A stretch of DNA of 64,000 bases from Candidatus Tayloriibacteriota bacterium (GCA_016188455.1 JACPHR010000010.1:3655-67654); one strand, 5' to 3'; counted from the stretch's first letter, positions 16,413-63,894 are shown. The notes: generated from the letters alone by a model not told the origin. Numbers and translations: made by a program.

Positions 16413-18683
16413 ATGAAATTATTGATCGTTGAATCGCCGGCGAAGGCGAAAACCATTTCAAAATATCTGGACGGCCTGCCTGCGCCTGCCGGCGCGAAAG
16501 CAGGCGGGCAGGCGGGCCGGTACATCGTCAAGGCTTCCGTCGGCCATGTCCGCGACCTGCCAAAGAGCAATAAAAACGCCATTGACATTGAGGGCGGCTT
16601 TGTGCCCCATTACGAAATTTCCAAAGGCAAGGAAAAGGTGGTCTCTGAGATAGAGGCTTTGGCCAGGAAGGCGGACACCGTGCTCTTGGCCACCGACCCC
16701 GACCGCGAGGGCGAGGCCATTGCTTGGCACTTATCCGAGCTTATAAAGGATAAGCTCGGAGAATCACGAATCAAGAATCACGAATCAAGAAGACCGATAC
16801 AGAGGGTGGTGTACCATGAAATAACGAGGGAGGCCATAAAAGAGGCTTTGGAGCATCCGCGAGACATTGACGAAAACTTGCGGCGCGCTCAGGAGGCGCG
16901 GCGGGTTTTAGACCGTCTCGTCGGCTACGACCTCTCCGGCCTGATTTGGAAAAAAGTGCGCTACGGCTTGTCCGCCGGCCGGGTTCAGTCTCCGGCTCTG
17001 CGCATTTTGGTGGAACGGGAGCGGGAAATTCGCGCCTTTAAGCCGGAAAAATTTTTCGTCATCAGCGCGGAAGTGGAAAGCAAAACCGGCGGTCGGTTCA
17101 TGCTTTTCTGCGTGGCAGAACCGCGCGACAAAGGGCTGGTGGAAAAAATCCTGGCGGCGGGCCGGCGCGAAGATTGGGTCGTTAAAGAGATTGCCGAAAC
17201 CGAAGCCAAGCGAACGCCGAAGGCGCCTTTCATCACCTCCACTCTCCAGCAAACCGCGAGCTCGCGGCTGGGATTCGCCCCCTCGCGCACCATGGGCATC
17301 GCCCAAAAACTTTACGAAGCGGGACTGATTACCTACATGCGCACCGACAGCACCACTTTGTCCGCCCACGCCCTGGCCCAAATCGGCCCGGCCATTCTGA
17401 AAAAATTCGGCGCCGGCCTCCACCAAAACCGGGTCTTCGCCAAAAAAAGCAAGAACGCCCAGGAAGCCCACGAAGCCATCCGCCCGACCAATCTTTCTCT
17501 GGAATCCGCCGGCGCGGGAAACGAGGCCCGCAAGCTCTACCGTTTGATTTGGCAGAGGACAATCGCCAGCCAAATGATTGACGCCAAAATTTTACGAAGC
17601 AAGATTACTGTCAGGGTCGGCACGGGCCCCTCGCCTGCGCTCGGGGCAAGCGAAATTCCGGACTTTGCCGTGGGCGGCTCGCGGTTGCTTTCCCCCGGCT
17701 GGCTCTTGGCCGACCCCGAAGCGCGGGGCGAGGATGTTGAACTGCCGAAAGTTTCCTTGAACGAAAAACTAACGCTCCTTCAACTGAAAACGGAAGAAAA
17801 AGCGACGGAGCCGCCGCCGCGCTACAGCGAAGCGGGTCTGGTCAAAGAGCTTGAGAAGCGCGGCATTGGCAGGCCCTCAACCTACGCCTCCATCCTCAAA
17901 ACCATTGAAGACCGGGGCTACGTGACCAAAGAAAACAAAGCCTTGAAACCGACGGATACCGGCGAAGTGGTCAGCGGCTTTCTGGAAGACAATTTTCCGA
18001 CTTACATTAGCGACAATTTTACCGCGGAGATGGAAGACAAACTTGACGATATCGCCGTAGGAGCGCGTCAGTACGAAAAAACTCTTGAGGAATTTTATAA
18101 ACCCTTCCATAAGGAAGTAAAAGCCAAGGAAAAGGCGGAAAAAGCCACCAACCTTGGAGAAGGCCCGAAAGAATTTTCCTGTCCGGTCTGCGACGGGCCC
18201 ATGATTATAAAACTCGGCAGGAGTGGAAGATTTTTAAGCTGCGCCAAATTCCCCGATTGCTTGGGCGCCCGCGCCATTGACGGCAAGGAACTTGAAGGGC
18301 CGAAAGAAACCGGCGAACTCTGTCCGGAATGTAAAACCGGCAAACTGGTTGAGCGCGACGGCAAGTTTGGCCGCTTTATCGCCTGCTCCAATTATCCGAA
18401 ATGCAAATATGTCAAGAAAGACGAGGCGCTGGAAAAGCAAAACTCAACCGGTGTCCTCTGCCCCGTCTGCAAGGAAGGCTTCATGACCGAGCGCCGCGGC
18501 CGATTCGGCCTTTTTTACAGCTGTTCCAACTATCCCAAATGCAAAAACGCCATCAAAGCCAAACCGACCGGAGCGCTCTGCCGCCTCTGCGGCGCGCTGA
18601 TGATGGAAGGCACGAAAACCATCCCCGAAAGATGCAGTAATAAAACTTGTGCCAACCATAACCCCCACAAACTCGCGAAGTAA
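16413..18683 (+). CDS. topA: DNA topoisomerase I with C-terminal zinc-ribbon repeats
   Basis: MKLLIVESPAKAKTISKYL Toprim N-terminus. Four Cys4 zinc ribbons at the C-terminus. An in-frame ~15-aa insert (LPAPAGAKAGGQAGR) is encoded by a GC-rich palindromic element. Confidence 0.95.
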   Translation: MKLLIVESPAKAKTISKYLDGLPAPAGAKAGGQAGRYIVKASVGHVRDLPKSNKNAIDIEGGFVPHYEISKGKEKVVSEIEALARKADTVLLATDPDREGEAIAWHLSELIKDKLGESRIKNHESRRPIQRVVYHEITREAIKEALEHPRDIDENLRRAQEARRVLDRLVGYDLSGLIWKKVRYGLSAGRVQSPALRILVEREREIRAFKPEKFFVISAEVESKTGGRFMLFCVAEPRDKGLVEKILAAGRREDWVVKEIAETEAKRTPKAPFITSTLQQTASSRLGFAPSRTMGIAQKLYEAGLITYMRTDSTTLSAHALAQIGPAILKKFGAGLHQNRVFAKKSKNAQEAHEAIRPTNLSLESAGAGNEARKLYRLIWQRTIASQMIDAKILRSKITVRVGTGPSPALGASEIPDFAVGGSRLLSPGWLLADPEARGEDVELPKVSLNEKLTLLQLKTEEKATEPPPRYSEAGLVKELEKRGIGRPSTYASILKTIEDRGYVTKENKALKPTDTGEVVSGFLEDNFPTYISDNFTAEMEDKLDDIAVGARQYEKTLEEFYKPFHKEVKAKEKAEKATNLGEGPKEFSCPVCDGPMIIKLGRSGRFLSCAKFPDCLGARAIDGKELEGPKETGELCPECKTGKLVERDGKFGRFIACSNYPKCKYVKKDEALEKQNSTGVLCPVCKEGFMTERRGRFGLFYSCSNYPKCKNAIKAKPTGALCRLCGALMMEGTKTIPERCSNKTCANHNPHKLAK
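16473..16518 (+). mobile_element. in-frame GC-rich palindromic mini-element (family E-like) inside topA
   Basis: ggcctgcctgcgcctgcc..gcaggcgggcaggcgggcc, an inverted repeat of the CCTGCC/GGCAGG type also seen at 23614 and 57688. It encodes an insertion absent from canonical TopA N-termini. Confidence 0.45.
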
Positions 18684-22602: not shown

Positions 22603-23589
22603 ATGGAGGCGAGTTTTGAGAAATACATGAGAAGAGCTGATAAAATTATCATTATTGCTGGGCCGACGGCGGTCGGAAAAAGCACGCTCGCCGTTAAGAT
22701 TGCAAAGAAATTCGGCGGAGAGATTGTTTCAGCCGATTCGCGGCAGGTCTATCGCGGATTAAACATCGGCACGGGAAAAATTACCAAAAAAGAAATGTGC
22801 GGAGTACCGCATCATTTGCTTGACGTGGCGAGCCCGCGTCGCAGATTCAGCGTGGTGGAGTATCAAAAGCTCGCCCGACAAAAAATCAAGGATGTTTTGT
22901 CTATGGGCAAGCTCCCCATCATCTGCGGCGGGGCCGGTTTCTACATTGAAGCCGTCGCGGACAATGTGGCCCTGCCCGACGCGCCGCCGAATGAAAAACT
23001 CCGCGCTCGGCTCCGAAAAGAAACTCCTGAAACTCTGCTGAACCTGCTGATGAAACTTGACCCGGCCCGAGCCGAAAACATTGACCGAAAAAATCCCCGC
23101 CGGCTGATTCGGGCGATTGAGGTCGCCCGGTCTCTCGGCTCCGTTCCTTCTCCTCTTCCTCTTCAACATTCATACGTTCCCTGCCTTGCCGGCAGGCAGG
23201 CTAGGAATGTAGGAATGTCAAAGAAAGAATTCAACGTACTCTGGATCGGGCTTACCCTGCCTCCGGCGGAACTGAAAAGGAAAATTGCTATTCGCTTATT
23301 CGCGCGAATTAGAAAAGGTATGATACAAGAAGCCCGGCGGCTTCACAAAAACGGCCTCTCGTGGAAACGAATGGAGGAGCTGGGTCTTGAGTATCGCCAC
23401 CTCGCGCGCTACCTGCGAAATAAAACGTCAAAACTGGAAATGACTGATAAATTGCAGACAGAAATCTGGCGCTACGCCAAGCGCCAGCTAACCTGGTTCA
23501 AACGCAACCGGCGAATCAGGTGGTTCCAGCCAAACCAAACGGAAGAAATTAAAACGTTGGTTAAAAACTTCCTGTCAAAATCAAAATGA
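22603..23589 (+). CDS. miaA: tRNA dimethylallyltransferase
   Basis: P-loop IIIIAGPTAVGKST and the SADSRQVYRGLNIGTGK motif. The track ORF has a spurious N-terminal extension running antisense to the arsR-like gene. Carries a lineage-specific insert around 23165-23300 that includes palindrome-derived sequence. Confidence 0.85.
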   Translation: MEASFEKYMRRADKIIIIAGPTAVGKSTLAVKIAKKFGGEIVSADSRQVYRGLNIGTGKITKKEMCGVPHHLLDVASPRRRFSVVEYQKLARQKIKDVLSMGKLPIICGGAGFYIEAVADNVALPDAPPNEKLRARLRKETPETLLNLLMKLDPARAENIDRKNPRRLIRAIEVARSLGSVPSPLPLQHSYVPCLAGRQARNVGMSKKEFNVLWIGLTLPPAELKRKIAIRLFARIRKGMIQEARRLHKNGLSWKRMEELGLEYRHLARYLRNKTSKLEMTDKLQTEIWRYAKRQLTWFKRNRRIRWFQPNQTEEIKTLVKNFLSKSK

Positions 23590-23613: not shown

Positions 23614-23652
23614 CCCGCCTGCCAAAGCCTGAGCTTGGCGATGGCGGGCAGG
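23614..23652. mobile_element. family E mini-element (TIRs only, 39 bp) inserted at the centre of an ArsR-type operator palindrome
   Basis: cccgcctgcc-aaagcctgagcttggcgat-ggcgggcagg, flanked by ttattcg | cgcgaattag. Removing it restores aattcgcgcgaatt. Confidence 0.5.
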
Positions 23653-26145: not shown

Positions 26146-27342
26146 TCAAGTGAAGATTCTTTTGATGAGAGGGTTGATACGGGTGACAATTTCATAACAT
26201 GACGAGTCGGTGAGAGCGCCCAGCTCCTCTGCGGTAATTTTTTTGCCCATGATAGTAACTTCGTCGTGAAGGGATACGCCTTTTATATCAGTAACGTCAA
26301 TCGTAATCATATCCATGCTGACGCGGCCTATGACCTTTGCCTGCCCGCCGACCTGCCCGTTCGCGGAACGCAGGCGGGAGCCGTTTCGGCGCAGGCGGGA
26401 CATTTGACCTTGAACAATAACCCGGCCAATTGAAGAGAGAGCGCGTGGATAACCATGCCAGTAACCGACGGGCACGATGGCCACTTTGCTTTCCTTGTCC
26501 AAGGTTTCGGCAAGGTCGTAGCCGATGCGGCTTCCCTTTGGTAATTTTTTTATTTCAGTAATAATTGATTTCCAGACCAACGCCGGCTCGAGCGAAATCT
26601 TTTTCTTTAGAAATTCTTTTACTTCAGCGGCCGGCCAAAGACCGTAAAGGCCGATGCCGATGCGCACCATGTCAAAGTGAGACTCGGGAAGAAGCATGCA
26701 GCCTGCGGTGGCGGCGGCGTGCGCCATCGGCCGCATCCCTTCTTTTTGAAAGGCCGCTATCCATTTCTTAAATTCCGCGAGCTGGGCAAGCGTGTCTTTC
26801 GGGAAGGCGGGATTTTTCGCGCTGGCAAAATGCGTGTAGAGTCCCTCAACAACTATTTTTGCATTTTGAGTTTTGATTTTTGATATCAGGGTTTTTTGCT
26901 GCCGCAGCAAAAAACCCTGGCGGTGCATACCGGTGTCCACTTTGATGTGAACGCGTAGGGGCTTGGAAAAGTTTTTACTGTTTGCCGCGATATATCGTAT
27001 TATTTCAAAAGAGGAAACCGTAATAGAAATGTCATTTGCCGAAGCCGCCGCGACCATTTCGGGCAGAGTGTAGCCAAGTATCAAAATGGGCAGTTTGATT
27101 CCCTCTCGCCTTAAAGCCAGGCCTTCCGTGACCGAATCAACGCCGAGAAAATCCGCCCCGAGTTTTTCCATCTCGCGCGAAAAATCAATAAGCCCGTGGC
27201 CGTAGCCGTTGCTTTTGACCACCGCCATCAACTTGGTTCGCTTCGCAATGAGCTTCTCAAAAACGTTAAAATTGTGCTTGACGGCCTTTCGGTCAACTTC
27301 AATCCAGGTGCGCAAACCTTTGTGGGCGGTTTTGCTTCGCAT
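26146..27342 (-). CDS. alr: alanine racemase
   Basis: PLP site VVKSNGYGHG. C-terminal GRVSMDMITIDV. Start taken at Met13 (ATG 27342). Carries a GC-rich in-frame insert (GQMSRLRRNGSRLRSANGQVGGQ) with a duplicated cgcaggcggga. Confidence 0.85.
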   Translation of the reverse strand: MRSKTAHKGLRTWIEVDRKAVKHNFNVFEKLIAKRTKLMAVVKSNGYGHGLIDFSREMEKLGADFLGVDSVTEGLALRREGIKLPILILGYTLPEMVAAASANDISITVSSFEIIRYIAANSKNFSKPLRVHIKVDTGMHRQGFLLRQQKTLISKIKTQNAKIVVEGLYTHFASAKNPAFPKDTLAQLAEFKKWIAAFQKEGMRPMAHAAATAGCMLLPESHFDMVRIGIGLYGLWPAAEVKEFLKKKISLEPALVWKSIITEIKKLPKGSRIGYDLAETLDKESKVAIVPVGYWHGYPRALSSIGRVIVQGQMSRLRRNGSRLRSANGQVGGQAKVIGRVSMDMITIDVTDIKGVSLHDEVTIMGKKITAEELGALTDSSCYEIVTRINPLIKRIFT

Positions 27343-43865: not shown

Positions 43866-43930
43866 TAAACGCCCACAGAATATCCACCGCTTGGGGTGGT
43901 AATTCTGTGGCTTGCGGATAATAACCCCTG
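43866..43930. repeat. family C structured repeat, copy 3
   Basis: cacagaatatccaccgc-ttgg-ggtggtaattctgtg followed by gcttgcggataataacccctgc. The stem sequence differs from copy 2 but pairing is preserved. Confidence 0.5.
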
Positions 43931-45770: not shown

Positions 45771-46020
45771 TGTTAAAATTTGATTATTATGAACGACCTT
45801 TTAATAATAAAGACTTTCTCATAGTATACCCCTCCTAATCCGAATGGCAAGCGGGGTGTGGATAGCGGTATGCGAACAGCCTTGGCGAATAGGCACATGC
45901 GAATTAAGAAAGGTATGCGAATCCCAGTAGCAGAACAAGGCTCGCTACGGGACAGGTAGCCTTAACGAAACGAATAGGCACATGCGGATAAGCATGCGAA
46001 TCGCGAAATTCCCCCCCCCC

Positions 46021-46758: not shown

Positions 46759-46788
46759 GGATAACTTTAGTTAATGGGGAGTGGCTGA

Positions 46789-47466
46789 CTATAAAGCATT
46801 CTGAAAAGCTTGGCTGGCGGCTGTTTTTGCCGCGTTCAAGGTCGTCATCAGAGCCGCTTTATCAAGGTTAAATTTAGCAATAAGAGCTTTGAGGTCGGTT
46901 TGCTGTCTTGTCTGGGCGGCCTTGACGACGTCTTTATAAACCTTGTAGGCCGCATCAATTCTTGTTTTGGCAACGGTAAAATTGTCGGTTAACCTCCTCT
47001 TCTCCGTATTGAAGGTGCCAGTAGGACCAACTTTAGCGGCGTTAAAGACGCCCTTGGCCGCTGTGTCGGCGGTTTTTTTAGCGGTGACAGCGGCGGTTTT
47101 GGCAACACTGAGGTTAGTTTCAGTTTGGCGTCTAGCGTTTGCCTTAGCCACTGTGTCCGTCATGGCGTTGACCCTGGCAATGGCGGTATTATAAGCATTC
47201 TGGGCCGCGAGCAAAGCCGCGTCATAAGCAGTTTTGGCTCTTGTGAGAGCGGCTATGTAGGCATCGGCGGCGGGCTTGAGCGCGTTGTCCAGAGCGGTCT
47301 TGGCGGCTTTTATGCCGGCATCCCTTGTGGCTGTGAGGTCTTTAACGGCAGAGGCGTAAATCTGCTCGCCTGTCCTTGCCGTCTGGGCCTGTACGACAGC
47401 AAGGCCAAACGAGAGCGCTAAGGCGCTCGCGGCGATAACGGCCAAAAATATTTTTTGTTTTAACAT
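46789..47466 (-). CDS. secreted Ala/Thr/Lys-rich helical-repeat protein
   Basis: Signal peptide. 225 aa of low-complexity repeats of the form AKTA..A..AL. Confidence 0.5.
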   Translation of the reverse strand: MLKQKIFLAVIAASALALSFGLAVVQAQTARTGEQIYASAVKDLTATRDAGIKAAKTALDNALKPAADAYIAALTRAKTAYDAALLAAQNAYNTAIARVNAMTDTVAKANARRQTETNLSVAKTAAVTAKKTADTAAKGVFNAAKVGPTGTFNTEKRRLTDNFTVAKTRIDAAYKVYKDVVKAAQTRQQTDLKALIAKFNLDKAALMTTLNAAKTAASQAFQNAL

Positions 47467-47643
47467 GTTTTTTAATAATTTACTTGTAAATCTAGCTAAA
47501 GCTATTATAGCACGATTTCATTCTTGTTCATCCCCCCGTCCCGAGGTTCAACCTTTCTCCCGATTTAAGGTTGAATCTCGGGATTTCCTTTTTGCTATTT
47601 TCTACTATCTATTATCTATTTCTACCTATCTATTATCTATTTT

Positions 47644-47973
47644 CTATACTCCCAAATAGGTTTTAGCCAAAATCCTGGCAAGGCCCCAAAAGGAAAAGAT
47701 GACTAGCATGCCGACAAGGCCGTAAACGATGAGCTGTTTGGCTTTGCCCAAACGTTCTTCATCGCCGCCCGCGCCGACATATTTCAAAACGCCGGTGAAG
47801 AGACCAAAGAAACCAAAGAGGGCGAGGAACGCCACCACCGGATTGAGGATGGCAATAAAATTGTGGACGAAGTCGGTCAAATTTTCCGGCCTGCCGTCCG
47901 CGGTCATGGCAGAAACCGTAATTGGTAGATACGAACATGCGAATGTTACAAACCATACTAACATTACGAACAT
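47644..47973 (-). CDS. T4SS-pilin-like small membrane protein, paralog 4
   Basis: Start at Met34 gives the signal peptide MFVMLVWFVTFACSYLPITVSA. ..GAGGDEERLGKAKQLIVYGLVGMLVIFSFWGL. The track ORF extends to 48072 through promoter-like repeats. Confidence 0.45.
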   Translation of the reverse strand: MFVMLVWFVTFACSYLPITVSAMTADGRPENLTDFVHNFIAILNPVVAFLALFGFFGLFTGVLKYVGAGGDEERLGKAKQLIVYGLVGMLVIFSFWGLARILAKTYLGV

Positions 47974-48104
47974 TGTACGAAAATACAAAAAAATATGAAC
48001 GCCATAGCGGTATTTGCAAAGTTCTCGTATGCGTTCGTATAGTGCGTATGAAGTTCGTAATGTTCGTATCATTTGTATAGTTGGTATGTTGGTATGGCTT
48101 TAGC

Positions 48105-48512
48105 CTAGGGTGTTGGACAGGTAAGGCCCGCGGTGCCCAACTGCTCGATGGTGCCGCAAACGACGGCGGAAAGCACTTTGGCGCCGAGAAGGATGGCAAT
48201 GCCGATAACCGTCCAGAGAAGGGCGGTTTTGGCTTCGCTTAACTTGTCTTCGTTGCCGCCGGCCATAACCATTTTGAAGCCCGAGTAAATCAGGAAAAAA
48301 ATCGCCACCACGCTGGCAATCGGGAAAACGGTGTCAAGCAACAAAGTGATAAACTTGAAAAGGGTGTCGTTTTCGCGGCCGAGAGGATTGGGAATGGTGG
48401 CTGACGTGTTGGTGACTATGTCGTGGTTGGTAGCCAAAACTAAAGCCCGCGGAAGGTAAAAAAGAAAGCCGGCGGCAACCCAAAAAAACTTTTTACTTCT
48501 TTTTATAAACAT
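48105..48512 (-). CDS. T4SS-pilin-like small membrane protein, paralog 5
   Basis: Signal peptide. VFPIASVVAIFFLIYSGFKMVMAGGNEDKLSEAKTALLWTVIGIAILLGA. Confidence 0.5.
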   Translation of the reverse strand: MFIKRSKKFFWVAAGFLFYLPRALVLATNHDIVTNTSATIPNPLGRENDTLFKFITLLLDTVFPIASVVAIFFLIYSGFKMVMAGGNEDKLSEAKTALLWTVIGIAILLGAKVLSAVVCGTIEQLGTAGLTCPTP

Positions 48513-48532
48513 GATAGATTTTGTTAGCTAGC

Positions 48533-48979
48533 TTAAGGTGTGGTCGGAGTCAACAACGACTTGAACTGGCTGTCTTTGATGAAACCGGCCTCAATGGCGT
48601 GAACGATAAGCCAAGCGGAGAGCATAATGAGAAAGCCGATAAGCACTTTGCCGAAAATTGACTTGGCCTGCTCTATTTTACTCATTTCGCCGCCAGCCGT
48701 CATCATCAGGAAACCGGCCCAGCCGAAAGCCACCGCCGAGAAGGCGGCCCCGAGAATGATGAGATAGTTGGTAATGTTCCCCACCAGCTTAACCAGGTCG
48801 GCCCAGCCGCAGTCATGCTTGAAGGCCGCGTTTATCGGCTGACCTTGTGCGTCAACCGCGTTCGAAGCGTAACCGCAAGGCACAATGGGCGACTGGGCCG
48901 CCGCCACGAGGGGCGCCGCCGCAAACAGACTAAAAACGATAGCTATGGCGCCGACAAAAATTGTTCCTCTCTGCAACAT
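48533..48979 (-). CDS. T4SS-pilin-like small membrane protein, paralog 6
   Basis: Signal peptide (AAAPLVAAAQSP). ..AGFLMMTAGGEMSKIEQAKSIFGKVLIGFLIMLSAWLIV. Confidence 0.5.
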   Translation of the reverse strand: MLQRGTIFVGAIAIVFSLFAAAPLVAAAQSPIVPCGYASNAVDAQGQPINAAFKHDCGWADLVKLVGNITNYLIILGAAFSAVAFGWAGFLMMTAGGEMSKIEQAKSIFGKVLIGFLIMLSAWLIVHAIEAGFIKDSQFKSLLTPTTP

Positions 48980-49058: not shown

Positions 49059-50339
49059 CTAAAGTCCCCTCGACAAACCAATTAAATTTTGCCCCGCGAC
49101 GCTGATGGCCCGGCCGACCTCAAGCTCCCCGCCCGTCACGGATTCTATCATACTTTGAAAAACAGCCTGCGAGGCCGCGGGATTGGGGTCAAGCCAAGCG
49201 CGCGCTCTGACGGCCGAGTTGTAAAAAATGGTTTGATAAGGGTCATTGGGGCTCGGCGCGAGCATCGCCCGCCTGACCGGCGGCAGGCCGGTGGCTTGGC
49301 TCAAACGGCCGAGGGGGCCGGGGCCGGTGATGGCGACGGCCGCTTGGAGGGCGCCGACGGCGTTTCCGGAATTTTTGAGCACCGCCAGACCCTGCATCCG
49401 CCCAAAAGTAAGAGCCACCGAGGCGCCTTTGGGCTGAGGGAAGAAAGTGACGTCAAAATTGAGGTTGGGATTTTTATCGCGAATCTTGGCAATCTCCGAA
49501 GCAAAGCCGAAATAAAAAGCCAAGTCGCCGGCGGTAAACATCTCTCGGGAATTGCTAAGCGCCCGGTTCCAGGCGTAATCCGGCTTGACCGGATTGGCAA
49601 AATCGGTATAAAAATTGAGGGCGCCGACGGTGCCGAGAGTGGGCGGGGTGAGCTTGACCTCAAGGCCGGCCGGGCCGTAGGCGGTGATGGGGTTGCCGGT
49701 CTGCATCAGGAGGGCGGCGATAATCTCTTTAGCGTTGGTGATATTGCGGAACTCGCCCAAAGCCACGGCGCTTTTCAAGATATTGAGATTCTTGTCTTTG
49801 ACGGTAAGCTTTGGCGCGAGAGCGATAAACTCGTTCCAAAACGCCGGCGGCAGGGACAAGCCGGCGTTTATAAGCAGATCGCGATTCCAATACATCACCA
49901 GCGGGTCAACGGCGAAAGGCAGGGCGATAATGCCGGCGTCGTCCAAATAGAGCTCCGCTTCCTGAATGAAAGTATTTTTGAACGTCGGCAGCGACATTGA
50001 GCTGTAAGACAAAGGCAAAACCTTGCCGCGGTATCTCATAATCAAGTCCTGCGGCAGCAGAATGGCGTCCGGCCCGACGCCCGAGGCCAGCGCTTCTATC
50101 AACCCCTGGTCAAAACTTTCCGGCTTCTTCTCAATGTAGGTGAGTTTCAAACCGGCCTTGCCCTGCTTGAGGTCGGCGACGGCGTTGTTAAACTCCGCGA
50201 CGGGCATTGTGCCCCAGATGACGACGGGGAAACTATTGCCGCGATTGGCGCTTTTAGTGGTGGCAAGCACAATCACGCCGGCGATAATCGCCAGAGCGAA
50301 AACGGCGAGAGTGATGGCTTGGAAAGGGGTAATCTTCAT
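49059..50339 (-). CDS. membrane-anchored extracellular solute-binding-protein-like (SBP family 1 fold) protein
   Basis: N-terminal TM anchor, then a periplasmic-binding-protein-like domain. No permease or ATPase genes are adjacent. Confidence 0.55.
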   Translation of the reverse strand: MKITPFQAITLAVFALAIIAGVIVLATTKSANRGNSFPVVIWGTMPVAEFNNAVADLKQGKAGLKLTYIEKKPESFDQGLIEALASGVGPDAILLPQDLIMRYRGKVLPLSYSSMSLPTFKNTFIQEAELYLDDAGIIALPFAVDPLVMYWNRDLLINAGLSLPPAFWNEFIALAPKLTVKDKNLNILKSAVALGEFRNITNAKEIIAALLMQTGNPITAYGPAGLEVKLTPPTLGTVGALNFYTDFANPVKPDYAWNRALSNSREMFTAGDLAFYFGFASEIAKIRDKNPNLNFDVTFFPQPKGASVALTFGRMQGLAVLKNSGNAVGALQAAVAITGPGPLGRLSQATGLPPVRRAMLAPSPNDPYQTIFYNSAVRARAWLDPNPAASQAVFQSMIESVTGGELEVGRAISVAGQNLIGLSRGL

Positions 50340-50974: not shown

Positions 50975-51090
50975 CAAAATGAAAATTGAAAAATCAAAAT
51001 GGAAAATGACAATGTAAAATCTTAAAATTTTTAATTTTGCATTGTCATTTTGATTTTTGATATTTACATTTTACATTATTATAGCCTAGT
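50975..51090. repeat. family D AT-rich repeat, empty-site copy
   Basis: ggaaaatgacaatgtaaaat ... ttttgcattgtcattttga tttttga|tatttacattttacatt. Shares 20-mer and 16-mer words with 57611-57808. Confidence 0.55.
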
Positions 51091-51130
51091 TAGCAGCAAA
51101 TAAAAAGTCAGAATATCTTATATCACTTGG

Positions 51131-53608
51131 CTAAAGACATGTTAGAGACGCAATAGCGTCCCCTTCGCGCAACTTCATGACGCGCACCCCTTGAGTCTGG
51201 CGGCCGATAATCGGAATCTCTTTGACATCAACCCGGATCACCTGGCTCTTTTTGGAAATGGCGATGACTTCTTCGGTTTCCGTTTCGTCAACAACTTTTG
51301 AGGCCATGAGCTTGCCGGTCTTGGCGGTAATTTTGACCGTCTTAATGCCGGAGCCGCCGCGCTTCTGGGTCTTGTATTCCTTAAGCAAGGTCTTTTTGCC
51401 GTAGCCGTTTTCCATAATGACGAGCAGGGTCGGATTTTTCTGGCCTTTCTTGATGACGTCGGCGCCGACCAGGGTGTCGGCCTTTTTTAGGCGGACAACC
51501 CGCACGCCGCCGGCGCTTCGGCCCATTTCGCGGATATCGCTTTCTTGGAAACGGATGGCTTGGCCGTTTCTCGTGACTACAATGCAGTCGTCGCCTTTCT
51601 CCGCGAACGAAGCCGAAATCAGCTGGTCGTTTGGCTTAAGCTTGATGGCAATCAAGCCGGAACGGCGCACGTCATGAAAACTTTTGGCGGCCACTTTTTT
51701 ACCGACGCCGTTTTTGGTCACCATCAAAAGCGACAGGCTTGACTGCTTCACCGCCTTGGGCATGGCCAAAATGCCGGTGACTTTTTCGTCGTCGGCAAGC
51801 GGGATGAAATTGACGATTGACTTGCCGCGCGTCGCCCGCCGGCCTTCCGGCATTTCATACATCTTGATTTGGTAGGCCTTGCCTTTGTCGCTGAAAAATA
51901 AGAGGTCGCTGTGGGTGGTGGTGGTGAGAAAGGTGGTGACAAAATCTTCTTCTTTGGTGTCAAGGTCAACGACGCCGACGCCGCCGCGTTTTTGCTTGCG
52001 GTATTCTTCCGGGTCGGTGCGCTTGATATAGCCGCCTTTGGTGAGCACCAAGACGCTCTCGGTGTCCGGAATCAAATCTTCCTCGGAAAAAGCGCCCACA
52101 CCCTGTTTGATGATTTTGGTGCGACGCTCGTCCCCGTATTTGGCTTTGATTTCTTTCAGTTCGTCCTTGATGATGGCAAGAATTTTTTTCGGGCTGGCCA
52201 AAATTTCCTTAAGGGTTTTGATGAGGGTTTGAGTGACTTTGAGCTCGTCTTCAATTTTCTGCCGTTCAAGGGAAGCCAAGCGCGAGAGTTTCATTTCCAA
52301 AATGGCTACGGCTTGTTTATCGGAGAACTTGAATTGCTTCATTAGGTTGGCCTTGGCCTCATCCGTATCTTTTGACCTCTTGATGAGCTTAATGATTTCG
52401 TCGATGCGGTCAAGGGCCTTTTTGAGACCGATCAAAATGTGCTCCCGCTCTTCCGCTTTTTTAAGGTCAAACTCAGTCCGGCGCCGGACGACGCTCACCC
52501 GATGGGCCACAAACTCTTCAAGCAGGGCTTTGAGCGGCAAGGTCTGGGGGACGCCGTCCACGAGCGCCACCACGTTGAAGTGAAAGGTCTCCTCGAGCTG
52601 GGTGTGTTTGTACAGGAAATTCAAAACTTTCTCCGGATAGGCTCCCTGCTTCAGGTCTACGACGACGCGGATATCCTTGGACGATTCGTCGCGCAGGCCC
52701 TTAATACCTTCAACTTTTTTCTCCCTGACTAAATCGGCAATCCGCATGATGAGTTCGGCTTTGTTGACCCGATACGGAATAGAAGAGATGACAATCTGCG
52801 TCATGCCGGCTTTGCCTTCTGTGATTTCAGCCACGCCGCGTGTTACGACGCCGCCGCGGCCCGAGCCGTAGGCGTGCTGGAGGTCTTTGGCGCCAAAGAC
52901 GATGCCGCCGGTCGGAAAATCAGGCCCTTTGATGAACTGGAACAGGTCTTCAGTGGTGGCGTTTTTGTCGTCAATCAAGTGAACCGTCGCATCCACAACC
53001 TCGTCTAAGTTGTGAGGCGGAATGTTGGTAGCCATACCGACGGCAATACCGAGCGTGCCGTTCAAAAGCAGATTGGGGACAGCAGCCGGTAAAACTGTCG
53101 GCTCTTTCCTCGTACCTTCGTAATTGGGCCGCCAGTCCACCGTCTCCCGGTCTATGTCTCGAAGCATTTCTTGCGCCATGCGGGACATTTTGGCTTCCGT
53201 ATATCTGTCAGCGGCGGCATTATCGCCGTCAATCGAACCGAAGTTTCCCTGACCAATGACAAGGGGATAACGCATGCGAAAATCTTGGGCCATGTTGACC
53301 ATTGAATCATAGACAGCTACGGTGCCGTGGGGATGATAGTTACCGGTAACATCTCCGACAATTTTGGCGGATTTTCTGGTTTTAGCATTGGCAGTAAGAC
53401 CTAATTCGTGGAGCGTATACAAAATCCGCCGGTGTACCGGCTTCAAACCGTCGCGCACGTCCGGGAGGGCGCGGGCGGTGATGACCGACATAGCGTAGTC
53501 CAGATAAGACTCCTTCATTTCGGCCGAAATGTTGCGGGTAATAACATTCACATGCGGGCCTATTTCAGGCCTTTTTTCGGGCTTTTTGTCGTCCTTTCGG
53601 TCGGGCAT
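51131..53608 (-). CDS. gyrA: DNA gyrase subunit A
   Basis: [17 protein letters not shown], an active-site Tyr region, and GyrA-box-like QKRGGVG in the C-terminal beta-pinwheel. Confidence 0.9.
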
Positions 53609-53755
53609 AGTGCTGTAATTCTAGCAAAAATAGAGGCCTTTGGCCATACCAATCTACTAATGAATACGAATCTGCGAATAACTACCAATGTGATATGCGT
53701 GGGGGTATTATTCGTAGTTATTGGCGGTATTGGCAACATTCGTATATTGGTATAT

Positions 53756-54013
53756 TCATTTGTATCCGAAAATGTCGGCGCTGATTTTTTTGACCGAATC
53801 AATGAAACTGACAATGTTCGTTTTGACTTCATCAATCGGCCGCAACTGTTTCGCCAAGGCCGCGCTGTCTGCGTCGCTGACCTTCAGATTCAAATCAAAG
53901 GTGGAAAGCCACACAATAAAAATGACGCCCGTAATAACAGCGGTGGTAAAAAGCAAAACCCGTTTTCTGTAAGCCAACGGCTTTTTCCGGAGCTGTTCCA
54001 AGTAGTTAAACAT
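53756..54013 (-). CDS. small single-TM membrane protein (85 aa)
   Basis: Basic N-terminus followed by a TM helix LLFTTAVITGVIFIVWL. Confidence 0.4.
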   Translation of the reverse strand: MFNYLEQLRKKPLAYRKRVLLFTTAVITGVIFIVWLSTFDLNLKVSDADSAALAKQLRPIDEVKTNIVSFIDSVKKISADIFGYK

Positions 54014-54109
54014 ACTAATATACTATACTGCTAATAACTGCGAATACTCCCGGTAGACAACATTAAGTAGTTATTCGCAGATTCGTACTAATTCGTATAT
54101 TGGTATCGG

Positions 54110-54754
54110 TTATTGCGCCAGCAATACGACCACCTCTCCCTCCTTTCCCTCCAAATCTTTTTTCTTGAGAGTCAACTTGTCAACGGGCTTGGTTTCCTCT
54201 TCCCCCGCTTCCTTGAGAAAAACTTTGAGAGCTTTATCACCCACGCCGCCGTAGTGCATCGGAATTATCAATCGAGGCTCAAGCTTGACCGAGAGTTCAT
54301 AGGCGGCCGCGGGCGACAGTACGCCGCCGCCCACCGGCACGAACAAAATATCAATATCGTCAAGCGCCTCTTTGGTTTCAGCCGGCAAATCTTTTGAATC
54401 AAGCGCGCCGAGAAAACAGAGGTTCATGCCTTCGAGCGAAACGTTGTAAATAGTGTTGATGCGAGAATCTTTCGAGCCCGCCTCTAGTCCGTAACGCGAC
54501 TCTCCCTTGAAACCTTTTATAAAAATACCTTTTATCTCATACTCGCCCGGACCGCTAATGACAAACGGCGCCCGCTCGCCGTGGGTGACGTTCTCCACGC
54601 CGTTAAAATCCTTGTCGTTGAGACTGACCAAGGCGATATCGGCGCCGAAGCGGGCGCCCTTGTGTTTTGATTCTTTGGCAATGGGGTTAAAAGCGATAAC
54701 CGTGTCGCCGAATTGGATTTTGAATGCTTCAAGCCCAAGGTAGGTGATAATCAT
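54110..54754 (-). CDS. MBL-fold metallo-hydrolase (UlaG-like, Lactamase_B_3)
   Basis: MIITYLGLEAFKIQFGDTVIAFNP and a C-terminal HYGG motif. Confidence 0.7.
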   Translation of the reverse strand: MIITYLGLEAFKIQFGDTVIAFNPIAKESKHKGARFGADIALVSLNDKDFNGVENVTHGERAPFVISGPGEYEIKGIFIKGFKGESRYGLEAGSKDSRINTIYNVSLEGMNLCFLGALDSKDLPAETKEALDDIDILFVPVGGGVLSPAAAYELSVKLEPRLIIPMHYGGVGDKALKVFLKEAGEEETKPVDKLTLKKKDLEGKEGEVVVLLAQ

Positions 54755-54959
54755 AGGGAGAATAGTAAATAGAAAATAGAAAATAGTAAAGAGTTTTGCC
54801 TATTTTCTGTTGGGACGTTTGCTATGTTCGGGTTGTTATGTATAATATCCCGCATGCCTGTCTGCCCTCTCATTTTGGCGGTTTGCTAACGCAAAGGCCA
54901 TTAATAAAACGCGCCGGGGTTAACCTTGCGGACATGGGTTCGTAAACCCCCGGCCGCCA

Positions 54960-56168
54960 TTGATAATGAAAAAAAACGATACTGCGGCAACCGCTCTCAA
55001 AGAAGCCACTGACTTAGTAAACAGTCTACGGGGGTCGGCTAGGTCAACCGGACTAACCCAAAAAGACAGCAACGGCAAAACGGCGGAAGAGGAAAAAGAA
55101 AAAAAGGAAAGCCTGATGAGCAGGCTCCTGAAAGAGAGCGGCAATCCGCCTGCCGTTGGCGACTTGATTGAAGGTGGGGTTCTAAACATTGAGAAGGCTA
55201 GGGTGTTCGTTGACCTGCCGCCTTACGGCACGGGCGTCATCTACGGCCGCGAGTATATCAACGCCCGCGACGTCATCAAGAAAATTTCAATCGGCGACAA
55301 AATCACCGCCAAAGTCGTTGACGTGGAAAACGAAGACGGCTACATTGAGCTGTCGCTTCGCGAGGCCCGCCAAGCCATGATCTGGAGCGAGGCCGAGACG
55401 GCCATCCGCGACAAGAAAATCCTGGACCTCACGGTCAAAGAGGCCAACAAGGGCGGACTGATTCTTGAGTGGCAGAGCATCGCGGGTTTTCTGCCCGCCT
55501 CCCAGCTCAAAGCCGAACACTACCCGCGCGTGGCCGACGGCGACAAGGATAAAATTCTTGAGGAACTGCGAAAACTGGTCGGCGAGCGAGTTTTGGTGTC
55601 GGTCATTTCCGCCATTCCCAAGGAGGGTAAACTGATTTTCTCCGAAAAAAGCCCCGAGTCAAAAGACAAGAAAAAGATTGTCGGCAAGTACACTGTGGGC
55701 GACGAAGTGGCGGGTGAAGTGACCGGCACCGTGGACTTCGGCGTATTCGTAAAGCTGGAAGAAGGCCTGGAGGGCTTGGTGCACATTTCGGAAATTGATT
55801 GGGCGCTCGTTGAAGACCCGAGACTGCTTTTCAAGGTCGGCCAGAAGGTAAAGGTAAAAATCATTGAAATCAAAGACGGCAAGATTTCCCTCTCCATCAA
55901 GGCTCTCAAACCAAACCCTTGGATTGAAGCAGCCAAGAAATACAAGAAAGATGACGTGGTCAAAGCCGTCATCATTAAATTCAACAAACACGGCGCGCTG
56001 GCCTCAATTGAAGAAGGGGTGGCCGGCCTTGTCCACATTTCCGAATTCGGCACCGAGGATAAACTGCGTGCCAATCTTGAGCTCGGTAAAACCTATACCT
56101 TCAAAATCACCTTCTTTGACCCTAAGGAGCAAAAAATGGCGCTCTCCTTCGTGGCTGATAAAAAATAA
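54960..56168 (+). CDS. rpsA: 30S ribosomal protein S1 (four S1 domains)
   Basis: Four repeated S1 OB-fold motifs (G..V.G.V..I....VFVDL.. ; GLVHISEI). Confidence 0.85.
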   Translation: MIMKKNDTAATALKEATDLVNSLRGSARSTGLTQKDSNGKTAEEEKEKKESLMSRLLKESGNPPAVGDLIEGGVLNIEKARVFVDLPPYGTGVIYGREYINARDVIKKISIGDKITAKVVDVENEDGYIELSLREARQAMIWSEAETAIRDKKILDLTVKEANKGGLILEWQSIAGFLPASQLKAEHYPRVADGDKDKILEELRKLVGERVLVSVISAIPKEGKLIFSEKSPESKDKKKIVGKYTVGDEVAGEVTGTVDFGVFVKLEEGLEGLVHISEIDWALVEDPRLLFKVGQKVKVKIIEIKDGKISLSIKALKPNPWIEAAKKYKKDDVVKAVIIKFNKHGALASIEEGVAGLVHISEFGTEDKLRANLELGKTYTFKITFFDPKEQKMALSFVADKK

Positions 56169-56187
56169 ATGAACCCTCCTTTATCTC

Positions 56188-56227
56188 ATATAGATACGAT
56201 GGTAATTATATGAGATAAATGATAAAA
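56188..56227. promoter_or_regulatory. palindrome (13-bp arms, 14-nt spacer) immediately upstream of wHTH/Cas2-like paralog 2
   Basis: tttatctcatata-gatacgatggtaat-tatatgagataaa. Confidence 0.45.
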
Positions 56228-56237
56228 TTCCGAGTAA

Positions 56238-56813
56238 ATGGGGGAAAAACCTAAAAGCGTGAAAAGACTTCGGGTCGGCACTACCCAAAAACAAATTCTT
56301 CTCTTGTTGCTTGCCGGAACGGCAATGGGGCTGTCAGGGTCGCCAAAAACCTTTTTCAAAATACTTTCTTCTCTGCCGGAAGCTTTAAGAGAAATAGAAG
56401 AAAAAAATGTTCGCCGAGCGATTCAAAACCTCTATAGATCGCGCCTGGCGGAAAAACAAGAACACCCTGACGGCACCATGACACTGGCGCTGACTGATGA
56501 AGGAAAGCGCGTGGCTCTACGCTACGACATCAACAAGATGAAGGTGGTAAAACCTCGGAAATGGGACGAGAAGTGGCGAATCGTGACGTTCGATATTCCT
56601 CAAAAAGCCAGGTGGATTCGCGACAGTCTCCGAGAGCATCTGCGGCAACTTCAATTTTATGAACTGCAGAAATCGGTCTTCGTTCATCCGTTTGATTGTA
56701 AAAATGAAATTGACTATATCGTTGAATTCTACAACATTCGCCGCCACGTGCGTTTCATTATCGCCGACTCAATCGACAATGAGCTGCACATCATGCATTG
56801 CTTAGGGCTCTAA
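56238..56813 (+). CDS. winged-HTH + Cas2/VapD-like-fold C-terminal domain protein, paralog 2
   Basis: WRIVTFDIPQKARWIRDSLREHLRQLQFYELQKSVFVHPFDCKNEIDYIVEFYNIRRHVRFI, Cas2-like. Paralog of the gene at 27458. Confidence 0.45.
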   Translation: MGEKPKSVKRLRVGTTQKQILLLLLAGTAMGLSGSPKTFFKILSSLPEALREIEEKNVRRAIQNLYRSRLAEKQEHPDGTMTLALTDEGKRVALRYDINKMKVVKPRKWDEKWRIVTFDIPQKARWIRDSLREHLRQLQFYELQKSVFVHPFDCKNEIDYIVEFYNIRRHVRFIIADSIDNELHIMHCLGL

Positions 56814-57000
56814 AAACATCCCTTTCCTTCTTGCTCGTATACCAACGATGGTTGTTATGTGAGCCAAAAGTAACGTCAGTAACGTAACGTGGTTCACCGA
56901 AGGTGATTTAAAAGTGATTCAAAAGTCATTCACCGGCAGCTTTCCTTACCTTAATTAAAACGCGAGTCAAGCACGCGGCAAGGCCAGGCCATGATATTTC

Positions 57001-57591
57001 TCATATGTATTGCCGGCTCATCGCCTTCTCACGGCCGTCAACGACGAGCGACTTGAGGGCTTCGGCGATTTTGGGGGAAAGTTTTTTGAGCGCGGCGAGC
57101 TCCACGGGCGAAAATTCGCCGAGTATGTGTTTGTCCACCGCCGCGTCGCCACGCGGTTTTTTTAACTTACCGGAAGGCGTTGCGGGAGAAATGCCCACCC
57201 GAAGACGCAGAAAGGCTTGAGTTTTCAAAGCTTTGATGATTGATGCCACTCCGCGGTGGCCGCCCGAGCTTTTGTTGAAAGAAATTTTGAATTTCCCGAG
57301 GGGGATATCAAGGTCGTCGTGAATCACCACCAGATGCTCCACGGCCTTCTTGCTTTTTATAAGCGGTGCGACAGAAATCCCTGATTGATTCATAAAAGTT
57401 TCCGGTTCAACGAGCGTGACTGCCTCTCTCCCCAATTTTCCTGAAGAAGACAGTGCTTTGATTTTTGCGCTCAACTGCCAAGCGGGCAATTTTTCGGCTA
57501 TGCGAAAGGTTTCCAGGACCATTCGTCCCGTGTTGTGGCGAGTATCTTTATATTCATTACCCGGGTTACCGAGTCCCACGACAATATACAT
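57001..57591 (-). CDS. pth: peptidyl-tRNA hydrolase
   Basis: YIVVGLGNPGNEYKDTRHNTGRMVL. Start at Met22 (ATG 57591); the track extension is spurious. Confidence 0.85.
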   Translation of the reverse strand: MYIVVGLGNPGNEYKDTRHNTGRMVLETFRIAEKLPAWQLSAKIKALSSSGKLGREAVTLVEPETFMNQSGISVAPLIKSKKAVEHLVVIHDDLDIPLGKFKISFNKSSGGHRGVASIIKALKTQAFLRLRVGISPATPSGKLKKPRGDAAVDKHILGEFSPVELAALKKLSPKIAEALKSLVVDGREKAMSRQYI

Positions 57592-57810
57592 AAAAGTTAA
57601 AAAATTAAAGTGGAAAATGACAATGTAAAATTCAAAATTATCTGATTCGGCCAATTTTACACTTTAAACTGTCATTTTAGATTTTGACCCGCCTGCCTTC
57701 GCCTAAAGCTAACTCTCATTGCTCAACAAGTTGTAAAATTTTCTTTGCTTTTCATTAATCAAATAATCCGGCTCAGGCTTTGGCGGGCAGGTATTTACAT
57801 TTTACATTGA
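57592..57810. repeat. family D AT-rich repeat, filled-site copy (contains E3)
   Basis: tggaaaatgacaatgtaaaatt ... gtcattttagattttga | E3 | tatttacattttacatt. Confidence 0.55.
57688..57791. mobile_element. family E MITE-like element (104 bp) with 21-bp terminal inverted repeats, nested inside a family D repeat
   Basis: cccgcctgccttcgcctaaagc ... gctcaggctttggcgggcagg. The TIR 21-mer cccgcctgccaaagcctgagc also forms element E2 at 23614. The homologous site at 51058 is uninterrupted. Confidence 0.6.
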
Positions 57811-63860: not shown

Positions 63861-63894
63861 CATCACGAATCAAGAATCTTGAATCAAGAATGAG

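Follow-up and report, generated by a model that had tools for sequence, protein, structure and literature searches.

A small GC-rich palindromic element inserted upstream of pth in a Parcubacteria-type bacterium, with relatives that carry tRNA genes

Results

Two AT-rich repeats, one empty and one filled

The DNA analysed here, called the window throughout, is a stretch of 64 kb from a Parcubacteria-type bacterium (Patescibacteria). It contains two copies of an AT-rich repeat, family D. The first lies upstream of the methyltransferase gene, in the spacer that separates its ATG at 50972 from the stop codon of gyrA at 51131, and has hairpin arms at 50982-51020 and 51034-51072; Logan contigs break within this copy. 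The second lies upstream of pth. The two words by which an earlier note had recognized the repeat occur at both places and exactly twice each, at positions 51001 and 57612 for GGAAAATGACAATGTAAAAT and 51062 and 57793 for ATTTACATTTTACATT, against a chance expectation of about 0.02-0.03. The junction of copy 1 is unbroken and reads ttgatttttga/tatttacatt, while exactly 104 nt are inserted at the same point in copy 2, beginning with CCCGCCTGCC and ending with GGCGGGCAGG. Excising this insert, which we call E57, restores GATTTTGA joined to TATTTACATTTTACAT and raises the global alignment score of the two copies from 78 to 115.5, so that they align across the junction. The features of the window are collected in Table 1.

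Table 1. Coordinates of the repeats and GC-rich hairpins in the window
Feature	Position	Strand	Remark
Diverged GC hairpin, in frame in topA, encoding LPAPAGAKAGGQAG	16476..16517	+	homologue comparison
Unbroken copy of the E23 flanks (CTATTCGCTTATTCG/CGCGAATTAGA), second empty site, within the miaA coding sequence	23289..23314	+	family D8
E23, 39-nt core copy; reverse complement CCTGCCCGCCATCGCCAAGCTCAGGCTTTGGCAGGCGGG	23614..23652	+	interrupts a palindrome resembling an ArsR-type operator
Diverged GC hairpin, in frame in the alanine racemase gene (alr)	26340..26399	-	exact left end CCTGCCCGCC, two GCAGGCGGG right ends
Family D copy 1, empty site; junction 51061/51062	50975..51090	-	pair I7
Family D copy 2, pth-proximal part; AT-rich quasi-periodic hairpin between E57 and the pth ATG (57591)	57592..57687	-	family D14, pair I1
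E57, the 104-nt GC hairpin element with cargo, within family D copy 2	57688..57791	+	exact insertion relative to copy 1
E57 left arm, CCCGCCTGCCTTCGCCTAAAGC	57688..57709	+	homologous to metagenome left arms (CCCGCCTGCC-WTCGCY-AAAGC)
E57 AT-rich cargo, about 60 nt, not recognisable as tRNA	57710..57769	+	tRNA model search, cargo comparison
E57 right arm, GGCTCAGGCTTTGGCGGGCAGG	57770..57791	+	its 21-mer used for the metagenome scan
Family D copy 2, distal part (TATTTACATTTTACATT)	57792..57810	-	word match

A minus-strand site resembling a promoter (57826-57799, a consensus match only) has its -10-like TAAAAT in the distal part of copy 2, and E57 would therefore fall at the start of the pth leader. 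The identical filled site recurs in all three Logan contigs from this population. Strains did not differ in the presence of E57 among these three contigs, which thus lend no support to recent activity in this genome. The cargo of E57 gave no tRNA model match at E<=10 and no similarity to the tRNA cargos of the metagenome copies described below, and it showed weak similarity (z 2-3.6) to the AT-rich cargos of four of these copies (L138, L134, L149 and L107b).

Other copies in the window

The window holds two canonical copies of the inserted element, family E. A shorter version at 23614, E23, has the same ends as the 104-nt copy and interrupts the palindrome TTATTCG/CGCGAATTAG, just as the earlier note had it; its DNA fold has an energy of -12.7 kcal/mol (z = -3.0). 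With the unbroken copy of its flanks it forms a second filled/empty pair (23614-23652 versus 23289-23314). The version noted earlier in topA is indeed in frame, but it does not share the same termini and is a diverged relative (CCTGCCTGCG...GGCAGGCGGG) whose fold has z = -2.9. It adds 14 aa relative to E. coli TopA, and of 19 close TopA homologues from Parcubacteria 15 lack it. At the hairpin in alr, the alignment with PDB Alr splits into two stretches, with about 17-20 extra residues there. Over the whole window, 14 GC-hairpin arm pairs were observed compared with 0.17 in shuffled sequences, and the hairpins are more stable than shuffles (z about -3). E57 as a whole is no better folded than its shuffles (z -0.7 and -1.3), which we count against our preferred explanation and which follows from its long AT-rich loop.

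Ends and architecture of the element

The 104-nt segment is bounded by inverted repeats as had been claimed, but these are imperfect and not the 21-bp terminal inverted repeats first described: the ends of E57 pair at 8 of 10 positions in register (with one C.A mismatch and one T.G) and at about 14 of 22 over 22 nt, and both end mismatches are the same in all copies. Its left end is cccgcctgccttcgcctaaagc and its right end, reverse-complemented, is cctgcccgccaaagcctgagc; the string cccgcctgccaaagcctgagc, put forward for genome searches, is the left end of the 23614 copy and neither end of the 104-nt copy. The termini are made of 4-nt CCYG units and occur in two combinations only, both asymmetric, CCTGCCCGCC...GGCAGGCGGG or CCCGCCTGCC...GGCGGGCAGG, so that every real copy has the ends L:TC with R:AG or L:CT with R:GA. 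Because these combinations are fixed and asymmetric, the hairpin folds 4 nt out of register and is never perfectly paired in register. The core of the element is a 39-nt hairpin, and in long copies both arms, each about 20 nt, are retained around a loop with 64-77 nt of cargo. Among the metagenome copies, the interior occurs in both orientations relative to the ends.

Distribution in other genomes

A metagenome scan with the E57 right-arm 21-mer (R at two positions) gave 66 loci; one arm was fixed in choosing this sample, which is therefore biased with regard to how conserved that arm is and how often tRNA-Thr contexts occur. We distinguished 43 insertion events with differing flanks, several of which hold a 39-mer identical to E23. 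Identical 39-mers were found in L088, L096, L114, L120, L125, L131, L132 and L137, and the 39-nt core, the reverse complement of 23614-23652, occurs in many unrelated contexts in Parcubacteria contigs. The unselected loci of relatives (1.19 Mb) contained a single clear copy (L080), which also counts against our preferred explanation and indicates that the element is sparse or patchy.

The sites occupied comprise AT-rich hairpin repeats, palindromes, tRNA genes and in-frame surface loops of proteins. Coding copies are in frame with lengths that are multiples of 3, in RluA (L088), TatD (L132), an XerC/D-like protein (L110) and, as a related 54-nt copy, Pth (L080), and the copies in protein genes are read through as 13-20 extra residues. 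The RluA gene of L088 has orthologues that lack the insert, and 41-nt variants are confined to noncoding DNA. Copies with AT-rich cargo lie upstream of genes in L093, L098, L138, L149 and L134.

Target sites and mobilizing enzyme

No target-site duplication, neither TA nor any other, was found at E57, at E23 or at the 43 metagenome events, and no conserved target tetra- or pentanucleotide adjoins either end in either orientation scheme. The flanks show a weak preference, with no T at -1 and A rare at +1. Insertion is precise, since exact deletion of the element restores intact tRNAs in seven loci. Those window ORFs that were scanned against Pfam gave no transposase, integrase, HUH or HNH family match, so the cognate transposase of IS630/Tc1-like or IS200/IS605 type that had been suggested has no match among them; no RAYT (Y1 HUH) gene was seen in the 64-kb window, and neither there nor in 149 loci is an ORF enclosed by a pair of arms. 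DprA is encoded in the window.

Copies that carry tRNA genes

The cargo of long copies is often one complete tRNA gene, and such copies always lie inside a tRNA gene with the same anticodon as the cargo. In-silico excision restored an ARAGORN-detectable tRNA with the anticodon of the cargo in seven loci, where the inner and outer tRNAs are 65-88% identical; in all, 7 of 13 interrupted outer tRNAs are intact after deletion of the element. Other outer copies are decayed or truncated (L089 level 1, L128 level 2, L099, L104 and L145), and L089 and L128 contain nested, three-level tRNA-Thr structures. Within the tRNA, the element is repeatedly inserted behind nt 22-24, 34-37 and 54. Together with the arms, the acceptor stem of a cargo tRNA makes a helix of about 19 bp.

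Discussion

Family E is a small mobile palindromic element, a conclusion strongly supported by the two filled/empty pairs, the excess of arm pairs over shuffles, the identical 39-mer at many unrelated sites and the seven restored tRNAs. The mobility proposed in the earlier note is thereby borne out, but its label of a MITE with 21-bp terminal inverted repeats does not fit imperfect ends in two fixed asymmetric combinations, without a target duplication or a conserved target tetranucleotide. We estimate a probability of roughly 0.72 that family E is a selfish DNA element of Patescibacteria (Parcubacteria) which is non-autonomous, GC-rich and an imperfect palindrome, behaves like the Rickettsia palindromic elements and is not a classical MITE. 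No prior description of it was found in the searchable literature. E57 is a cargo form of this element situated in the putative AT-rich promoter or leader hairpin upstream of pth, and the paralogous hairpin on the methyltransferase side is still empty.

We infer that family E would be copied in trans by an enzyme encoded elsewhere, other than a DDE transposase, which recognizes the folded hairpin, probably as single-stranded DNA, and that the interior could flip relative to the termini by way of the hairpin arms. The tRNA copies may enter tRNA genes of the same anticodon by a homology-dependent route (DNA uptake and recombination), disabling and replacing the resident gene. The copies in the window are probably inert passengers, and E57 would give the 5' end of the pth leader a stable stem.

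The alternative that survives best, which we nevertheless consider unlikely, is that family E is REP/REPIN-like or derived from IS200/IS605, a hairpin with an unpaired 4-nt head (CCTG or CAGG) that moves by cut-and-paste in single-stranded form, the enzyme being a HUH (Y1) transposase of RAYT/TnpA type encoded in single copy elsewhere. The absence of target duplication, the imperfect palindrome, 35-39 nt long, whose predicted fold leaves a constant tetranucleotide unpaired, the fixed asymmetry of the ends, the two orientations of the interior relative to them and the resemblance of the long forms to REP doublets forming a hairpin are all consistent with this origin; however, the head is neither GTAG nor CGTC, copies also lie within coding DNA and are not only extragenic, neither end adjoins a conserved target tetra- or pentanucleotide, and those window ORFs that were scanned against Pfam gave no Y1_Tnp-type match.

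Much less probable is an element that acts at the RNA level, in which the arms form a processing helix and the insert is removed from transcripts as an intron or split-tRNA device (compare the archaeal bulge-helix-bulge), leaving the interrupted genes functional. RNA removal would predict the 7 of 13 outer tRNAs that are intact without the element, and the recurrent insertion points in tRNA genes and the acceptor stem extended by the arms to about 19 bp agree with it. Splicing would, however, make it unnecessary for all coding copies to be in frame and multiples of 3, and a working outer gene would make it needless for the cargo anticodon always to equal that of the interrupted gene; moreover, the insertion points fall within the anticodon or stems with no common exon-side structure, outer tRNA copies are decayed or truncated, and the loci and window gave no match to an Rfam intron family.

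A still smaller chance is given to a host-functional hairpin, which would be conserved, not selfish, and put to use at many sites to bind a protein, stabilise mRNA or act as a terminator. While the near-identical sequence in different genomes, the position of E57 directly downstream of the promoter-like site of pth and the AT-cargo copies upstream of genes in five loci would suit such a function, the element occupies non-equivalent places (coding sequences in several frames, tRNA genes, the centre of an operator-like palindrome, and both 5' and 3' regions), close relatives lack it at orthologous or paralogous sites, and no T-run terminator signature was found; single copies may have been exapted. 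Least probable of all is a classical MITE, derived by deletion from a DDE transposon (IS630/Tc1-like or similar) and moved by cut-and-paste through terminal inverted repeats, because its small size, inverted-repeat ends and dispersed copies are outweighed by 43 events without TA or other duplication and tRNAs restored base-perfectly on excision, ends that pair 8/10 with always the same two mismatches, a DDE transposase not found among the window ORFs scanned and, across 149 loci, the lack of any longer copy whose arms enclose an ORF.

Within the preferred reading of family E as a selfish palindromic element, we offer tentatively, at somewhat less than even odds, that the GC arms constitute a previously undescribed tRNA-gene cassette, which homes into a gene of the same anticodon and inactivates and replaces the resident, the 39-nt core and E57 being derivatives that have no cargo or whose cargo has decayed. 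Such a cassette would consist of a complete tRNA gene within a conserved hairpin's loop, with recurring points of entry that lie in the D stem, anticodon loop or T loop; the derivatives, core and window copy alike, would by now be spreading or persisting in protein loops and at neutral sites. If this is true, a host with single-copy tRNAs cannot lose the invader, and repeated invasions leave tRNA genes nested inside each other.

Comparison with known systems

Bacterial MITEs such as Correia, RUP and Nezha are mobilized by IS630/Tc1-type or other DDE transposases. Family E is likewise small, noncoding and dispersed, with inverted-repeat ends, and sometimes in frame or co-transcribed, but it differs in having no target-site duplication, in its imperfect and asymmetric ends and in the parent IS not being found in the window. 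REP/REPIN elements have a GTAG or CGTC head and an extragenic location. Like them, family E is an imperfect palindrome in the 20-40 nt range, leaves a constant tetranucleotide unpaired at one end, occurs also as doublets or long hairpins and duplicates no target; it differs in its CCTG/CCCG head, its presence within the RluA, TatD, XerC/D-like, Pth, TopA and Alr coding sequences, and its low density (two canonical copies per 64 kb) in a window where no RAYT gene was found. IS200/IS605 elements enter the DNA 3' of a conserved target of four or five nucleotides and do not duplicate it; family E likewise makes no duplication but has no conserved target word. One paper on REP/REPIN elements with RAYT transposases is PMC3733652.

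Like the GC clusters of yeast mitochondria, family E consists of GC-rich palindromes scattered in AT-rich spacers and inside genes. Those clusters are palindromic mini-elements in AT-rich spacers, with in-frame copies in var1 too, and they move although they have no enzyme themselves; unlike family E, they are organellar and eukaryotic, unrelated in sequence and without tRNA cargo. Archaeal bulge-helix-bulge introns and split or permuted tRNA genes (PMC3978253, PMC4390854 and PMC3293823) and the group I introns in tRNA genes of Patescibacteria (PMC13011429, which is silent on palindromes, hairpins and nested genes) similarly present tRNA genes broken at non-canonical positions with GC-rich complementary flanks. 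In contrast to the archaeal introns, family E has a bacterial host and junctions with no common bulge-helix-bulge geometry; compared with group I introns, it is far too short for a catalytic core and has no Rfam intron match; and unlike tRNA introns in general, its insert holds a complete second tRNA of the same anticodon, with outer copies that decay.

The closest likeness in behaviour is to the Rickettsia palindromic elements, short palindromic repeats of a reduced bacterial genome that occur in frame in protein genes, at surface positions where they are tolerated, and also in RNA genes and intergenic DNA. To our knowledge, they have no associated transposase and no described forms that carry complete tRNA genes and replace resident ones. 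They were reportedly described by Ogata et al. in 2000/2002. Family E is also palindromic, belongs to a reduced genome, is in frame at tolerated surface positions and is absent from orthologues (topA, alr and the RluA gene of L088). The comparison of the two is one of behaviour, and family E differs in the phylum of its host, in a core of 39 nt as against about 100-150, in very GC-rich arms with a fixed 4-nt register slip and in forms that hold complete tRNA genes.

Insertion at the family D repeat

Each of the two words noted for the AT-rich family D repeat occurs exactly twice in the window (chance expectation ~0.02-0.03), in the two intergenic places reported in the earlier note, and the two copies are an empty and a filled site. 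In copy 1 the junction described there as uninterrupted does read ...ttgatttttga followed directly by tatttacatttt, and at exactly this point copy 2 holds the 104 nt of E57, a copy of the GC-rich hairpin element (family E), where copy 1 has nothing. Global alignment of the two family D copies scores 78 with E57 kept and 115.5 after its removal, which restores the junction ...GATTTTGA to TATTTACATTTTACAT; no base is duplicated at the E57 junction when copy 2 is compared with copy 1. The segment starts with CCCGCCTGCC and ends with GGCGGGCAGG. Since these ends are imperfect inverted repeats, pairing at 8 of 10 positions in register (one C.A, one T.G) with ~14 matches over 22 nt, the 21-bp terminal inverted repeats attributed to the element were an overstatement, and the string proposed for counting its copies is the left end of the copy at 23614.

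A search for family D elsewhere matched only this organism's own contigs. No strain polymorphism was seen at E57, as contigs with an identical pth all carry the filled site. The ArsR-like neighbour of E23 (the 39-nt copy at 23614) was absent from the record, and the methyltransferase contigs terminate within family D. Two independent short-read Logan contigs (L150 and L151) stop at ~window 51018, inside family D copy 1 and 46 nt 5' of the methyltransferase ATG, consistent with an assembly break at a repeat.

On the pth strand a promoter-like site, identified by consensus match only, lies just upstream of E57, which therefore would begin the pth leader. A consensus scan of that strand placed the only promoter-like site upstream of the element and none inside it, and a mobile promoter as its cargo (the sequence held between the ~20-nt paired ends, or arms) is not supported. 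A decayed tRNA-Thr, prompted by ...CAACAAGTTGTAAAA, was rejected: the cargo matched no tRNA model at E<=10 and gave no alignment signal to tRNA cargos.

Copies elsewhere in the window

Pairs of element ends <=240 nt apart number 14 in the window vs 0.17 in shuffles. Because palindromes of the family TTCTAATTCGCGCGAATTAGAA flank two paralogous ArsR-type genes (56% identical) on both sides, "operator" is a reasonable label for the palindrome that E23 splits. There is a second empty site, as the 29 nt flanking the 23614 copy recur unbroken at 23289-23314, inside the miaA coding sequence. The topA hairpin is in frame as had been claimed; E. coli TopA lacks the 14 residues it encodes, and so do 15 of 19 close Parcubacteria homologues. 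Its ends are not the same, and the hairpin is a diverged relative. The alignment of alr to solved alanine racemases is interrupted at its GC hairpin by ~17-20 extra residues.

Very short CCTGCC...GGCAGG hairpins of ~22-24 nt also occur and may be related to the element as minimal or decayed forms. The one in miaA overlaps a 14-aa variable insertion in MiaA with ambiguous boundaries and is only a possible copy.

Features of the window and, where a locus number is given, of other assemblies and metagenomes
Feature	Position	Length	Remarks
Family D copy 1	50975-51090		between gyrA stop (51131) and ATG of minus-strand methyltransferase (50972)
Family D copy 2	57592-57810		between ATG of minus-strand pth (57591) and lepB (57919)
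E57	57688-57791	104 nt	in family D copy 2
E23	23614-23652	39 nt	E57-type ends; centre of TTATTCG / CGCGAATTAG
ArsR-type HTH genes	22269-22529, 23659-23919	86 aa each	both minus strand
TTCTAATTCGCGCGAATTAGAA palindromes	22224-22257, 22547-22580, 23597-23664, 23936-23969		bracket the ArsR-type genes
topA hairpin	16476-16517		in frame
alr GC hairpin	26340-26399		in frame; exact left end CCTGCCCGCC
Short CCTGCC...GGCAGG hairpins	23170-23205 (miaA), 43920-43950, 49268-49291	~22-24 nt
AT-rich quasi-periodic hairpin repeats	2184-2303, 13882-13926, 16760-16805, 47929-48095, 53645-53756, 54063-54106, 63859-63890		units such as ACGAAT/AATCAAG
tRNA-Tyr	39563-39647		own 3' end (gcttcgaatcctgcccgacgc) again ~100 nt downstream, around 39764-39784; region 39563-39790
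Tandem structured repeats	40269-40675	three of 136 nt	several hairpins each; directly after tRNA-Lys
Related units	18718-18780, 24006-24075, 28309-28378		after topA; downstream of tRNA-Trp, tRNA-Cys
PaaX_M/Cas2-like proteins	27458-28057 (-), 56238-56813 (+)		beside tRNA cluster; beside pth and E57 locus
T4SS-pilin (TrbC/VirB2-like) domain genes	45023-48979		at least 5, small, clustered; long AT-rich hairpins between
Second arm family	L128 5060-5200, L086 1005-1110, L093 1110-1345, L138 4155-4340

The family in other genomes

A metagenome scan with GCTCAGGCTTTGGCRGGCRGG gave 66 loci, a few of them unrelated high-GC sequence and the remainder elements with both ends, and we count 43 distinct insertion events with the window's own included. 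Core copies of 39-41 nt make up 22 of the 43, several being the base-for-base reverse complement of E23 in unrelated flanks. Every real copy has ends of either CCTGCCCGCC...GGCAGGCGGG or CCCGCCTGCC...GGCGGGCAGG; a combination able to pair perfectly was not found in any. In the predicted fold CCCGCC pairs with GGCGGG and a 4-nt head is left unpaired, and the 39-mers fold ~3 sd better than shuffles. Relative to the ends, the interior (ATCGCC...GCTCAGGCTTT) is found either way round. Neither orientation scheme shows a conserved flank word as target motif; T is disfavoured at -1, as is A at +1.

As to the host, the neighbourhood of the window's S1 protein matches solely MAGs of Patescibacteria/Parcubacteria (Taylorbacteria, Zambryskibacteria and similar), none above 79% identity, and relatives of TopA and RluA bear the same names. 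Unselected loci of relatives, 1.19 Mb altogether, contained only one clear copy (L080). Both arm patterns were without a match in viral contigs, which gives no sign of a phage or plasmid origin, and Rfam recognised only tRNAs in the window and 20 loci.

Copies inside protein genes

The 39-nt core, when translated, is open in five of six frames. It stands in frame in an RluA-family pseudouridine synthase (L088), many orthologues of which have no insert at that loop, in TatD (L132) and between the two domains of a XerC/D-type recombinase (L110), and a 54-nt relative is in frame in Pth (L080). All coding copies have lengths that are multiples of three, and the 41-nt variants are confined to non-coding or tRNA contexts.

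The AT-rich quasi-periodic repeats, in which GC element copies are often nested (L088, L125, L132, L147), appear to be a second kind of repeat that inserts into proteins. One is in frame in topA, encoding ESRIKNHESR, and relatives of TopA and RluA have similar in-frame runs (DSRFKIQDS / ESKILNRES) in the same loops.

tRNA genes as cargo

Twenty events are of the cargo type, 104-230 nt long with both arms kept. In six of them, as in E57, the cargo is AT-rich (64-73 nt); these cargos show only weak similarity among themselves and are unrecognisable as tRNAs. The remaining ones contain a whole tRNA gene (Thr, Pro, Gly, Glu or Val), facing either way, and each of these copies is inserted in a second tRNA gene with the same anticodon, recurrently after nt 22-24, 34-37 or 54. 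When the element is deleted exactly at its ends, ARAGORN recognises an intact tRNA spanning the junction at 7 loci. The inner (cargo) and outer (resident) tRNA genes are 65-88% identical. Some outer copies are truncated or lack a stem, and at some loci a single arm and a 3' remnant remain. In L089 and L128 tRNA-Thr(UGU) is nested three levels deep, the innermost level of L128 having a different arm family (CCCCGTTAGAAAT...).

tRNA genes are found between the arms of this second family (CCCCGTTAGAAAT...ATTTCTAACGGGG, also CCCCGTTAC...GTAACGGGG), and in L093 and L138 the arms surround a segment whose GC element sits shortly before an ORF; the ORF of L093 reads at its N-terminus as an nth-like endonuclease III. 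In the window, the second tRNA-Tyr 3' end may have been left behind by a tRNA replacement of the type seen in the metagenome loci. The 136-nt structured repeats near tRNA genes matched no Rfam family.

Flank complementarity was compared for 44 of the 46 tRNAs of the window and unselected loci (two were too near a contig end) and was no higher than in a mismatched-flank control. Parcubacteria tRNA genes are thus not hairpin-flanked in general, which makes the cassette structure a specific trait of these elements.

We consider that the tRNA-carrying copies would spread by a homology-dependent route, with DNA uptake and recombination through the tRNA halves ending in replacement of the resident tRNA gene, which would account for the same-anticodon rule. 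An intron-like reading of the element is unlikely, as the coding copies respect the reading frame, the outer tRNA copies decay and the cargo anticodon is always that of the interrupted gene. Random insertion followed by selection leaves the same-anticodon rule unexplained, because tRNA-carrying copies were never seen at neutral sites.

Search for a mobilising gene

The cognate transposase that the earlier note proposed to look for (IS630/Tc1-like or IS200/IS605-type) was not among the window ORFs scanned against Pfam: their functions were housekeeping or unknown, and transposase, integrase, HUH and HNH families were all absent. A longer autonomous copy was not seen in the window or in 149 loci, as no distant pair of arms has an ORF between them. 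DprA is encoded in the window. Given the hairpin-with-head architecture, the mobiliser would most plausibly be an enzyme that recognises single-stranded DNA, and the constant asymmetric hairpin mismatches offer a concrete substrate for identifying it.

Significance and relation to known elements

Full-text literature searches, of incomplete coverage, for the end sequences, Patescibacteria tRNA introns, nested or interrupted tRNA genes and palindromic elements in the group found no description; one paper (PMC13011429) treats group I introns, with hairpins and nested genes unmentioned. Judging by the tRNA-carrying copies, a gene-drive-like cassette may be able to replace tRNA genes laterally, and such cassettes may be the part that is new in kind. 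Lateral replacement, if confirmed, would be a new turnover route for translation-machinery genes and could account for odd or missing tRNA calls in Patescibacteria genomes.

Patescibacteria genomes are among the smallest and most streamlined in bacteria, and selfish palindromes still colonise them. Lineage-specific insertions are frequent in their proteins; with its 13-20 extra residues in essential enzymes (TopA, Alr, Pth, RluA, TatD and the XerC/D-like recombinase), the element is a source of such insertions. Annotation can go astray at split operators, at tRNA fragments and where assembly breaks at a repeat.

The element is conserved, dispersed and palindromic, inserts precisely without target duplication, is tolerated in frame in proteins and is nested in AT-rich hairpins. 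The MITE label given to it does not hold in the classical sense, because the element makes no target site duplication, has asymmetric ends and showed no parent IS, and a strict IS200/IS605 or REP assignment fails on the target word, the head motif and extragenic location. We rate it among the selfish palindromic mini-elements, a known kind. In-frame coding insertion has been described for the Rickettsia palindromic elements, and the coding copies of the element behave as theirs do.
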